A stretch of DNA of 64,000 nt from Eledone cirrhosa (Eukaryota), in assembly GCA_964016885.1 (NCBI GenBank), contig OZ024745.1, positions 42,532,001-42,596,000 of the forward strand, read 5' to 3'. The notes under the pieces were generated by a model. It did not search any database. It saw only the letters and a list, made by a program, of their open reading frames with translations, and was not told where the DNA came from. The translations under genes and the position numbers were made by a program. Below, piece after piece: positions 13,697 to 56,378 of the stretch (positions within the stretch are counted from its first letter, which is position 1; the number at the start of each line of letters is the position of its first letter).

Positions 13697-13912
13697 AACG
13701 AAGGAGGTGTGATAAGGAACCAGATGGAACATAACGCACCAGAGTACTCAATACTTAGGGTAGTAGAGTGGGTAATAGGAAAATGTTTAACCCCGACGGC
13801 AGAGCTCAAGAGCTCAAGCCGTTTCGACCGCTATTTCTGGACTAAATTGAATTTAGTCCAGAAATAGCCGTCGAAACGGCTTGAGCTCTGCCGTCGGGGT
13901 TAAACATTTTCC
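13697..13912. mobile_element. PLE-like fold-back insert in (TA)n, family TA1 copy 1
   Basis: Inverted arms around 13848. Each arm has the hammerhead 3' half GAAACGGC-TTGAGCTC-(T/A)GCCGTC. Confidence 0.8.
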
Positions 13913-14016
13913 TATATATATATATATATATATATATATATATATATATATATATATATATATATATAAATTAATAAAATAATGAATAAACAAAGAAACA
14001 TAATCTACATTCATAT

Positions 14017-15262
14017 CTACTTTTGATAAGGGGTGGCCCTTTTGAGCACACTCCAGGTCAGGTCATAATCTATATTCCTCTTTCTATAACTATTAATTAT
14101 TTCAGCTAGAGATGTTGTATTAGCTAGTGCGGCATTTTTAAAACTATGTTTGTGGGTATTAAATCTTACCTTAAATTTGTTAGAGGTAGCTCCTATATAT
14201 GAATAAATTGAGTCCTTAGTGTTAACTTTACATTTATATACTATGTTATTAACAAGGCAATTTCCTTTTAATGGACAGTTTGCCTTGTTTCTACAGTTAC
14301 AACTTTTCTTGAATCCTGTATCTGAGGAGATATTATGGTTAGTTTGATGTACTGGTGGTATACTCATGGTTTTTTTACATTTATATGCATTATAGGCACT
14401 TATATTTTGTTTTATGTTTTTGGTTGTTGAGTAGGAGAATTTAACCGTTGATCTATTTAAGATTTGATAGTATTTGTGGTTTGGCGAGAAGTTTTTCTCT
14501 AGGCTATTAAAGAATTTTTTAGGTATATTATCCTTAATTTGTAAATTAAATGGAGCATTGTACCAAGTAACTCGTCTATTACGGTTTCGATGTTGTTTAT
14601 TGTTTTTATAGGATGCATCCTGATGTTTATTAAGAGAATTATTGTTAATGACCTCACCACACATTTTTAGTTAGATTTATTGATTTAGATGTTTTAGCTT
14701 GTTTATTAGGAGTTTTATTATTAACATTTATTAGAGTTGTAGGATGAGTAGTTTTTTGAGAGTTACTATACTGTATATTAGAAGAGTTAGAGAAATTTGG
14801 TTTTATGTTGGTGTTTTGGGGTATAGTGTGAGTGGCATTTAGGTGTGTATGTTTCATTTGGTGTTTGTTGGTAATATTAGGTTGTATGTTTGTAGTGTTA
14901 TTGGTAGAAGGTATATATGCTAATCTATTTTTGTGGCCACTTCTAGCTAGAGCTTCGTTATAAAAGGTCGCATTTTTATCAAATATATCTTGGTTAGATG
15001 AAAGGTTAGAAATTCTAAGTGATATATTATATGCAAGGTTTTTAAGGATAGATTTAGGGTGATTAGATTGTGAGTGTATGTAGTGTAAATTTTGGTTGGG
15101 TTTATGGTAAGGTTGGTAGATACCCGTAGATAAGTCTAATGTTATATCTAGGAAATTAACTACTTTACTTGTGTTTTCAAATGTAATATCTAGACTATAA
15201 TAGTCTTTAAGGAAAGTTCTAATAAGGTTTTTATTTTTTTCTATCTCTGAGAGGCTAATCTT
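14017..15262 (-). pseudogene. Penelope-like element (Naiad-like) RT thumb + Cys linker + GIY-YIG, truncated and frameshifted
   Basis: Manual translation gives VNFLDITLDLSTGIYQPYHKPN...YIHSQSNHPKSI...YNEALARSGH. The ORF track continues VTWYNAPF, CNCRNKANCPLKGNCL, IVY...YIGAT...FKVRFNTH. Frameshift near 14660. (TA)n on both sides. Confidence 0.9.
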
Positions 15263-15466
15263 GACTCTGTTTTCCGTTTATTTTTCACCGAAAGTAGTTT
15301 TTGAATGCATCTTCTCTTTTCATGATATCCGGATTACATTGAGTTCTTCATACGGATTGGACACTACCGTAAACCTTTGGTAGATTTATCTACATACTAT
15401 ATATATATATATATATATATATATATATATATATATATATATATATATATATATATATATATATAT

Positions 15467-16127
15467 AGGCATAGGTTAAGAATAACGTCCGCGAAAATGA
15501 AAGTGAATTTTCTGACAAGTGAATGTGTTTTTTTTTTTTTTTAAGTGAAAGTTACGATACACTCTTTGTTTATTTACAACAGGTCTCTATAGTGATATGG
15601 TGTTAATTAGTATTGCGTGTGTGATTATTTTCTCTTATATATATGTGTGTGGGTGTGTATATGTGTGTATATATATGTGTGTCTGTATGTATATATATAT
15701 GTGTGTTTGTATATATATATATGTGTTTGTGTCATCATCATCGTTTAGATGTTTTTACCCAAATCCCTTATCATTCTCTGTCCTTCTTATGACCCGGCCT
15801 TAATTTGTTTATAGTTGGTGCCAACTTTGGCAAGATATTACAAAAACATCTAAACGATGATGATGACACAAACACATATATATATACAAACACATATATA
15901 TATACATACAGACACACATATATATACACACATATACACACCCACACATATATATATGAGAAAATAATCACACACGCAATACTAATTAACACCATATCAC
16001 TATAGAGACCTGTTGTAAATAAACAAAGAGTGTAGCGTAACTTTCATTGTAAAAAAAAACAAAAAACACATTCACTTGTCAGAAAATTCACTTTCATTTT
16101 CGCGGACGTTATTCTTAACCTATGCCA
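15467..16127. repeat. Fold-back insert with about 290-bp near-perfect arms and an 85-bp spacer inside (TA)n
   Basis: 15467-15756 is the reverse complement of 15842-16127. Confidence 0.9.
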
Positions 16128-53173: not shown

Positions 53174-53510
53174 TAAACGTTTGAAGTTAGAAGGCAGGTT
53201 TGGAGATAGAATATAATTGTAAAAGACAGCGTTGACAATTAGTCTTTTACCTTAATTTATTCATATATCCTGATATTTCGAGATAATATCTCTTCGTCTG
53301 AGGAAAGTAAAGGGGTTAATCCAGTGTTCGAAGTGGATTAACCCCCTTTACTTTCCTCAGACGAAGAGATATTATCTCGAAATATCATGATATATGAATA
53401 AATTAAGGTAAAAGACTAATTGTCAGCGCTGTCTTTTACATTTATATTCTGTCTTTTAGATATATCTCCAAACCTGCATTGTTCTGGCCTTCTAGCCTCA
53501 AACGTTTATA
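53174..53510. mobile_element. PLE-like fold-back with minimal hammerhead (U4A variant) in both arms (53268-53304 -, 53354-53390 +)
   Basis: TCCT-CAGACGA-A-GAGAT-ATT-ATCTC-GAAA-TA-TC-AGGA. Arms about 150-180 bp. Confidence 0.8.
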
Positions 53511-53879
53511 CCTCACTACACAATGCTTCAAGTAAACTACCAATTCCTTATATATATATATATATATATATATATATATATATATATATATCCAGAGCCA
53601 GTGCCCCCTACCCCCAATAATAATATTCTTCTCCCCAAACTACCAAAACACACATCTATTTGGATATGCGCTACAATTTATGTACATGTTATGTTTATCG
53701 GACATCGAAATTTTCTGACCACTTTAGAGTGCAAAGAGCTAAACTGATCAATACAACTAAATTGACCAAATTTGTTCCCATATACACATATACACACACA
53801 AACGGATACACATTTACACACACACATACCCACACACATACACACACACATACATATTTACACACACACATATTTATCC

Positions 53880-54130
53880 ACACACACAAATCCACACACA
53901 CAGATCCACACACACATATCTCCTACACACAGATCCACACACACATATCTCCTACACACACAGATCCACACACACACACAGATCCACACACACAGATCCA
54001 CACACACATATCTCCTACACACACAGATCCACACACACATATCTCCTACACACACAGATCCACACACACATATCTCCTACACACACAGATCCACACACAC
54101 AGATCCACACACACATATCTCCTACACACT
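53880..54130. repeat. (CA)-derived minisatellite (CACACAGATCCACACACACATATCTCCTA)
   Basis: Direct reading, within a CA-rich region extending to about 55180. Confidence 0.85.
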
Positions 54131-56271
54131 GATCCCCGCATAAATTCAAACATGCACCCTTATCAAGACACTTGCACTTCCATACACACACACACAAGCA
54201 CAGACACATACACACACATTCACACAAACATGAAAATACACATGCACAAACTCACATTCACACACTCCCTTACGCACATACACACACACACATACACGTA
54301 CACACTCATACACACACACATACACACATACGCTCATACACACACACACACACAAGCACACAGACATACACACACACGCACAGACAAACACACACACACA
54401 CACATGGACACAAACACACACACATACATAGGCACAAACACACTGGCACACAAACACACATCGACACAGACACAGGCACACACACACACATATGGAGACA
54501 AACACACTGGCACACACGGGCACAAACACACACACACACACACACACAGGGACACAGCCACAGACACACACACACACACACACACATATGACACACACAC
54601 ACACACACACATGGACATACACACAACACACACACGGACATAAGTACACACACACTCACACACACATATGGACACAAACAAACACCCAGACAGCCACAAA
54701 CGGGCGCGCGTACATGTGCGTGTGCACGCACACATACACACACACACATAGACACACACACACACACACACACACACACATGGACATATACACACACACA
54801 CACGTACACAAACACACACTCACACACACAGGGACACAGCCACAGACACACACACACACACACACATATGGACACAAACATACACCCAGACAGCCACAAG
54901 CGGGTGCGCGTACATGTGTGTGTGTGTGTGCACGCACATACACACACACACACAGACACACACAAACATGGACACACACATGGACGGACACACACACACA
55001 TGGACATACACACACACACACACACGGACACAAACACACACACACACACACACACACACACACATGGCCACAGACACACATGGACATACACACACACAAG
55101 GACACAAACATACACGTATACACGCACACACATACACACACACACACACACACACACACATACACACCCACATATACACAGACAAAGACGACAAGGACAA
55201 CAGCAGCATCTGTTTCGATGCAAATGTCTGTGCAGGCACGCATGCACGTGCTGGCTAAATGAACGTGAACACGTGCTGCACAAACAATCGGGCATAAAAA
55301 TATTCTTATTCGTTCGGGCGTGTCTTGTCTGTCTGTGTGTGTGCGCCTGCGCACGTTTATGTGTGTGTATTTGTGCGTGTGTGTGTGTGTGTGTGTGAGT
55401 GTGTGTTAGTGTGTGTGTGTTAGTGTGTGTGGGGGGTACTCGAACTAAGCAGATCATCTCTGTATATGCTTGTGTGCAGGCGTTTTTATGTGTGCGTGTG
55501 TATGCATCACACACATATAAATGTATATGTGTGTGTTTGTGTGTGTATACATACATACATACATATATATATATATATATATATAGTGTTAATAATAAAT
55601 GTGAAGACTAAAATCGGAAGAGAGCTCGATAAGGATAAATATATATCAAATATATAAGAACCCTAGAGCAAATATTTATTAAAATAACAGATTAAAGTTT
55701 AAGCAAAGAATATCTGCTTTCACCCTTAACGGGATCTTCTGAAATATATATATATATATCCCGCTTGGTGACGGTGTAAGATTTCTCTTCGCGAGACTGC
55801 TGGAATTTCAAATTTGGCGGTCACTCTAACACTGATAGGTACCATGGCTGAATGTTAATATCGGTAGGGTTTTTTTTTATATCGATATTGTTGGGCATCC
55901 ACTGATGATTTATAAGTGCCCACCTGCATATATTCCTATAGACTATGTGTAGGCTTCTACATAACGTGGACATTATTTTCCCAAATTATAATGAAACGAT
56001 CGTTTGCAAAGAGGGATGTATTTAATTATGTCTCATATAAAATAATACAACTGTCTATCCTCAAAATACGTATAGTTAGCACCCCAAACGTATAATTGGG
56101 ATTATACTAAGGTATATCCTAATGTTTGTTGAGTGAGACAGAAGTTGGTCGGAGTATTGCTTAAAGCTTTCTCTGTTAATATATTAATTATATATATATA
56201 TATATATATATATATATATATATATATATATATATATATATATATATATATATATATATATATATATATAT

Positions 56272-56378
56272 AACGAAGGAAATGTGGTATGGAACCAGGT
56301 GGACCATAACGCACCAAAGTACTCAATACTTAGCCGTCGAAACGGCTTGAGCTCAGCCGTCGGGGTCTTACTTGTTCC
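56272..56378. mobile_element. Family TA1 copy 4 (inverted junction at TTAG microhomology)
   Basis: Same termini as the other TA1 copies. Confidence 0.82.

Follow-up and report, generated by a model that had tools for sequence, protein, structure and literature searches.

Among described mobile elements, the closest to those treated here are the Penelope-like elements (PLEs) of the Hydra clade (Craig et al. 2021, PMC8557442), which have a C-terminal nuclease, a DKT motif and a CxCX5C linker, lack CCHH, and insert into (TA)n targets as partial tandems with a hammerhead in the pseudo-long terminal repeat (pLTR), an inverted 5'-truncated copy and a one-sided tail. How PLEs come by their tails, inverted copies and pseudo-LTRs is listed as an unsolved question in that report, which in the passages covered here attributes the tail to resolution by the nuclease and contains neither pairing counts nor a cap signature. 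In vitro work on Anolis Poseidon has provided part of the answer: in the passages covered here, the PLE protein is predicted to be a dimer, cuts and extends both strands from two internal starts that match and bound the tail, uses uncleaved RNA as its main substrate, and makes a shorter product when the RNA is truncated at its 5' end (Frangieh et al. 2024, PMC11167929). In this work, we describe TA1, a group of short inserts with four copies in a 64,000-nt stretch of the genome of Eledone cirrhosa (contig OZ024745.1, positions 42,532,001 to 42,596,000; hereafter the window). Judging by sequence, TA1 is the end of the pLTR plus the tail of a PLE, and we assign a probability of about 0.72 to the reading that its inserts arise from a cut in (TA)n: each 3' end would prime synthesis on a capped sense RNA, at one of two fixed sites close to the RNA 5' end, and be extended until it runs off.

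TA1 resembles Poseidon in the features listed above. However, the start site of Poseidon is described as the same on both strands and without primer homology (PMC11167929, passages covered), whereas in TA1 a long and a short end are paired in vivo and both carry a TAT that matches the target. Tails, inverted truncated copies, (TA)n targets, two internal start sites and extension of both strands were thus already known; what is new here is run-off at a marked 5' end on both arms. Literature searches found no report of a cap signature, twin priming or strong-stop DNA in PLEs, although subscription papers and supplements might hold one.

Two other systems offer partial parallels. In the twin priming of L1, two primed DNA ends reportedly give rise to a head-to-head inversion with microhomology at the junction. 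L1 primes at the poly(A) 3' end and at a variable internal site, and its arms seldom overlap. TA1 shares the head-to-head inversion, the microhomology junctions and the untemplated G of full-length L1 5' ends, but its two sites are both internal and constant in place, no more than 140 nt from the 5' end, and its arms overlap; with neither a first priming at a 3' poly(A) nor a variable second site, it works alike but not identically. In LTR retroelements, minus-strand strong-stop DNA is primed by a tRNA near the RNA 5' end and runs off, and a terminal redundancy is present. TA1 is similar in that priming near the 5' end is followed by run-off, and in having a terminal redundancy by which a jump could occur. 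It differs in that the primer is the target DNA, RNase H is absent and the run-off cDNA is joined to the chromosome from the outset; a jump is only proposed.

A Penelope-like parent element

The entire parent unit, 3,118 nt long, is found at locus L283, where a partial tandem copy and an inverted copy precede it. It carries a single 719-aa open reading frame (ORF) that contains both a reverse transcriptase (RT; YRDD) and a GIY-YIG nuclease (VIY..YIG, with one Cys between the two halves), the arrangement of endonuclease-positive (EN+) PLEs. The nearest Atlas clusters to this ORF have scores of 0.96-0.99, and some of their members carry HTH_animal, GIY-YIG and RVT_1; Pfam, a PDB sequence search and a single-sequence fold (pLDDT 33) were uninformative for it. 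At L283, L147 and L159, as is characteristic of PLEs, a partial tandem provides the pLTR, and an inverted 5'-truncated copy and a one-sided tail are present.

The ORF at L283 also contains RWR at 36, DKT at 116 and CNCPDRSIC (the CxCX5C linker) at 571, without CCHH, and TA1 copies are inserted into (TA)n, as are Hydra-clade elements. These motifs fit the Hydra clade as defined in PMC8557442 (passages covered). In contrast to the Hydra-clade elements described there, the TA1 element has a tail of about 80 nt rather than 30-40 nt, a unit of 3,118 nt and a variant hammerhead core, UUGA(U/G)AA.

Fixed outer ends and their pairing

Positions in TA1 are counted from the long end, and the putative RNA start (+1) is position 139. 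The long arm of copy 1 (13697..13847, minus strand) consists of the tail and the 3' half of the hammerhead, contains an 8-nt tandem duplication, GAGCTCAA, and reaches +1 (T13843) and at most 4 nt past it; a TGA filler (13848..13850) separates it from the short arm (13851..13912, plus strand), which has +1 at A13855 and the terminus TTCC-(TA)n. Copy 2 has its +1 at T24022 in the long arm (23884..24023, minus), a CATT filler (24024..24027), and a short arm (24028..24085, plus) whose first base, A24028, is exactly +1. The long arms of copy 3 (45678..45715, minus; 38 nt) and copy 4 (56272..56333, minus; 62 nt) ended early, halting short of the short site, and do not overlap the short arms (45720..45751 and 56330..56378, both plus), although TTAG at 56330-56333 is common to both arms of copy 4. 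In element positions, the long arms of copies 1-4 extend to about 143, 140, 38 and 62 and the short arms to about 143, 139, 113 and 130, while the short end lies at 79-82 in all four. The preliminary description had reported that copies at 13697, 23884, 45678 and 56272 start with (TA)n-AAC(G/A)AAGGA and finish with TTCC-(TA)n in the opposite orientation, that the arms overlap in two copies and stop short and join in the other two, that copy 4 shares TTAG, and that the arms cross the GTC triplet, the predicted cleavage site; all of this is borne out, the overlapping copies being 1 and 2. Joints from long to short arm near 24027-24032 are numerous in the contigs of four sequencing runs of unrecorded kind (one study), but these contigs are not independent of the assembly and thus provide only a weak check against an assembly artefact.

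Genome-wide counts were made on the 3.0-Gb animal assembly, where a 27-mer of one TA1 subfamily occurs 4,683 times. Of the exact matches to a 26-mer of that subfamily, 2,545 break off into (TA)n at the short site and 2,503 read through it; reversed-pattern controls gave 0, so that the fixed short end is not due to chance. It is an internal TTCC|TATTAC site, in agreement with the TTCC|TAT proposed earlier. The long end is also internal, since TTCGT|TATCTAG continues into the leader and ORF at L283 and L300. TAT is common to both ends and the target, and both flanks of the inserts are (TA)n.

The two ends are combined in a strict manner. Tail-out inverted pairs at most 5 kb apart were long+short in 46 of 47 cases, long+long in 1 and short+short in 0 (p about 7e-13 against independent choice). 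This sample consists of 199 positions listed in the first 156 Mb of contig C1 and takes only pairs with an exact 26-mer match in both arms; "long" here denotes read-through at the short site, and at fetched loci such arms nearly always end at positions 1-4. The earlier proposal of two fixed UA-containing start sites thus agrees with the outer ends, each at UAU, and with their pairing, and the random end points that it named as the opposing outcome did not appear. One RNA held by a dimer would be the simplest explanation of so strict a pairing.

The ceiling and the base before it

Most arms stop within a narrow zone. Among the 75 short inserts described below, 99 of the 106 arms that reach position 133 stop by 144. 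Genome-wide, about 17,500 arms stop at 138-145 (5,658 at 138, 4,039 at 139 with a purine next, and about 7,770 with T next that do not read on) versus 4,842 that read on past +1 (680 + 4,162); about four in five stop.

In the main subfamilies, position 139 is the A of TCAGT/TTAGT and lies 29 nt behind TATTTAAA; relative to it, the predicted hammerhead cut is at +41, the short site at +58 and the long site at +138. A second family, whose copies were retrieved by pattern search (a DNA-query search gave 0 matches), has TATAAATA at -30 and then AGATTCC at +1. Its insert in the window (46724..46917) has the long+short layout with a complete minimal hammerhead core on both arms and a centre 2-4 nt downstream of the family's +1. 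In family 3, represented in the window by a long+short insert at 47085..47295 that also has the tail motif GTACTCAATAC, the ceiling in two long copies is near TTAGT, 30 nt behind a TATA-like box. The ceiling is therefore 29-30 nt behind a TATA-like box in all three families even though their hammerheads sit differently; it matches a TATA-like/initiator site and is likely the RNA 5' end. Passages of earlier reports describe an internal promoter in D. virilis Penelope, with the start within its repeat (PMC2377424), and a TATA/initiator pair in rotifer pLTRs (PMC3846280).

The base preceding +1 carries a further mark. When arms have a purine there, it is G in 85 and A in 15 of the 100 matches listed, against a window composition of 20% G and 31% A, while one base further in G accounts for 10 of 100 among the matches listed. 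In 200 listed read-through copies, the base is always C or T and never G (the C was set by the search pattern in one listing; the other had T in 100 of 100 listed). The partner arm cannot have supplied the G in 13 of the 24 TA1 junctions viewed. Family 2 behaves similarly, with G79 A10 T11 before AGATTCC among 100 matches listed, and 13 of 21 junctions viewed are unambiguous. Moreover, among the matches listed, both arms carry the G in 7 of 8 adjacent TA1 pairs and in 7 of 7 adjacent family-2 pairs. All 12 fetched pairs have the centre C-(0 to about 30 nt)-G: the six from TA1 include GACT-C-G-AGTC (C and G directly adjoining), C-A-G, C-CA-G, C-AAAAAT-G and similar forms, and the six from family 2 include C-A-G, C-T-G and similar forms. 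An untemplated G at L1 and SVA 5' ends has been interpreted as a copied cap (PMC4859970, in the part covered). The ceiling together with the extra G in two families makes a capped sense RNA the most likely template, with priming at 58 and 138 nt from the RNA 5' end.

Two alternatives bear on this point. Twin priming could be right while the arms halt at a structural obstacle, or at a 5' end that has been processed and is uncapped, with the G reflecting a C added by terminal transferase. Many arms do stop at 133-138, just beyond the hairpin AGCCGT-CGAA-ACGGCT, and fillers such as CCT, CCA and AAAA are untemplated additions; we nevertheless regard this as quite unlikely, because the neighbouring stop has no G enrichment and because the ceiling keeps its distance from the TATA-like box in the three families whatever the place of the hammerhead. 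Alternatively, self-priming on an antisense template made by a bidirectional pLTR promoter would produce a head-to-head palindrome before insertion, which is how the same kind of palindromic junction has been interpreted in rotifer PLEs (PMC3846280, passages covered). This is very unlikely here, since an untemplated base 5' of the sense-strand initiator in two families points to the 5' end of a sense RNA, and since non-overlapping arms exist.

Junctions, templates and a proposed route

Junctions between the arms were examined in 75 adjacent inserts from a positional sample of 102 loci, after removal of long inserts, of arms without a partner, of two long+long inserts and of one pair interrupted by another repeat. 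They fall into 53 types, with microhomology in 49 inserts, filler in 22 and a blunt joint in 4, so the other opposing outcome of the preliminary description, identical junctions among many copies, did not appear either. Among 54 clear junctions, the long arm is the longer in 28 and the short arm in 20, and they are equal in 6. The most frequent class, a hairpin with a 4-nt ATTC/GAAT pairing, has several centre sequences on several subfamily backgrounds, which means that it recurs and was not amplified.

A pre-formed palindrome amplified as a miniature inverted-repeat transposable element (MITE) or as a unit like a short interspersed nuclear element would account for thousands of short copies in TA targets and for one recurring junction class. 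Against it stand the number of junction types, the several backgrounds and centres of that class, and the asymmetric ends, whereas a MITE has a fixed interior and symmetric terminal inverted repeats. The sequence at 15467 (15468-16127), which was considered as a relative of the TA1 inserts and rejected, is a real MITE: its terminal inverted repeats are long, and the same 95-nt centre is present in 40 of 40 scored hits. Amplification is therefore refuted for most copies, and as a general account it is the most improbable of those considered here.

A cDNA primed at the long site alone might instead snap back, copy itself to the short site and join the other end by TAT microhomology, with later deletion or loop inversion giving the asymmetric copies. 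The near-identity of the arms within an insert, the hairpin class (16 of 75) and the frequency of microhomology are in keeping with this. However, snap-back cannot yield C-A-G, C-T-G or directly adjoining C-G centres in which both arms are at +1 with an extra base of their own; the short arm is the longer one in 20 of 54 clear junctions; the long arm never reaches the short site in copies 3 and 4, L090, L142 and L176; and the sharp short end is left unexplained, as other TAT sites lie in the tail. We consider snap-back unlikely overall, but some inserts of the hairpin class may have arisen in this way.

In 72 of 96 inserts, a few of whose loci entered the count twice, the two arms agree throughout a 14-nt subfamily block, as against 30.6 after shuffling (maximum 42 in 2,000), and 17 of the 24 mismatched pairs differ by a single letter. 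These shared letters fit one RNA or one source locus. In addition, the two arms terminate at an identical base, each with an extra G of its own, which indicates two separate syntheses. Of the earlier interpretation of overlapping arms, independent synthesis is thus upheld, while two templates are not favoured. Twin priming itself stands as regards start sites, pairing and variable junctions; its first formulation missed the junction at the likely RNA 5' end.

The full pLTR is predicted to fold into the shape of a type I hammerhead, with the core UUGAGAA...GAAA and GUC; L032 folds differently. The minimum-energy fold of L283:3200-3310 is a three-stem junction with the core boxes (z = 0.37, not better than shuffles), and an Rfam search of the pLTR gave no hammerhead match. 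As +1 falls in loop II, an RNA starting there would have neither the 5' side of stem I nor the first core box and only half of stem II, which would leave it unable to cut itself in cis. The re-ligated RNA invoked earlier is not needed, because the copied TA1 piece starts inside the hammerhead, without its 5' half. In family 2, the entire minimal hammerhead lies behind +1, yet the arms cross it; minimal hammerhead motifs cleave poorly alone (PMC4209133, passages covered). Non-LTR retrozymes are tandem non-coding units with a whole hammerhead each, whereas short TA1 copies have half a hammerhead and a coding source.

A genome-wide search for blunt jumps from +1 onto the ribozyme-cut 3' end gave 16 matches, 2 of them at or adjoining the cut, without enrichment; since a jump guided by homology would leave no trace at the joint, the count is neutral with respect to such a jump. 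Subfamily letters upstream and downstream of +1 stay linked in 54 long arms (some loci counted twice) except at L103, which indicates that jumps between different subfamilies are rare. Together, these results leave a jump on the same RNA through +1..+41, a circle or longer transcripts. Two loci illustrate passage beyond +1. At L283:2567-6427, a single arm from the short site traverses +1 twice over about 5 kb, with an ORF that looks intact. At L300:317-970, tandem 257-nt units each start at +1 and end just within the ORF, with TTT joints, a pattern compatible with successive jumps off the 5' end, with a small circle or with a later duplication.

In the two-site priming that we favour, the GIY-YIG nuclease of the element would cut (TA)n on both strands, the ...ATA-3' ends would pair with UAU at +59 and +139, and both cDNAs would end at or near the cap, which would be copied as C. 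Head-to-head joining of the two would follow, through microhomology, as a blunt joint or with filler. Overlap would arise on a single RNA if the long-site cDNA displaced or followed the short-site one, or else on two RNAs of common source that are held asymmetrically. The long arm would have stopped early in copies 3 and 4, and long and tandem copies would get past +1 if the cDNA jumped to the RNA 3' end or if the template were a circle or a longer transcript.

Several observations weigh against this account. The start site and the cap are read from DNA alone; the ceiling spans 138-143 and is not a single base; and one subfamily has only TATTCATA at -30. In addition, 3,595 arms reach 143, where G occurs in 9 of 100 among the matches listed, indicating a contribution from a second start or longer templates. 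Position 143 was also considered as the main start and rejected on the same low G frequency, though L290 has C-A-G there. The G could derive from the partner arm or flank in 11 of 24 TA1 and 8 of 21 family-2 junctions, and family 3 has no clear G in 25 older copies. Each family has one long+long pair (L135, L294), 16 of the 75 inserts fall in one junction class, and later conversion between arms could raise arm identity.

The window contains further structures of related form. Of the other fold-backs named in the preliminary description, those at 46724, 47085 and 53174 have the long/short layout, and the one at 15467 does not; 53174-53550 represents a further long+short family with variable centres and 1,585 first-look candidates. 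GTACTCAATA occurs in the tails of three otherwise dissimilar families (13744, 23931, 46765, 47115 and 56319), 30-47 nt from the long end, and is a candidate protein-binding site between the two start sites. A short head-to-head piece at 45607-45661 consists of two inverted copies, one of the family-2 end to its left (45519-45550) and one of the long end of copy 3 to its right; both halves carry the private letters of these neighbours and meet at CCA. It looks like a DNA-templated snap-back of both ends of a broken (TA)n, and partial copies akin to it occur in L027 and L124. Two copies of one DNA transposon with terminal inverted repeats, which we take to be mariner-like, lie in (TA)n at 45796-46689 and 34035-34842. 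Penelope-like RT/nuclease remains of other families are found at 13980-15400, where they were judged by eye, and at L033:3679-5184.

The genome of E. cirrhosa thus holds thousands of frozen insertion intermediates. They establish that the template is sense, and likely capped, where its two start sites lie, how these are paired and where synthesis ends. They argue against antisense self-priming, make a re-ligated RNA unnecessary for short copies, and supply exact substrates for an in vitro test of the poorly understood insertion of PLEs. With the G mark, PLE start sites can in principle be located from genome sequences by themselves. More tentatively, PLEs in general might replicate through target-primed strong-stop DNA, with both DNA ends priming within 140 nt of the cap and with a jump of the run-off cDNA to the RNA 3' end, via the 41-nt redundancy (+1 to the hammerhead cut), as the only source of full-length and tandem copies. 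If this is true, the strong-stop rule would account for pLTRs, tails, inversions and tandems as well as for what the ribozyme does, and would tie PLEs mechanistically to LTR elements.

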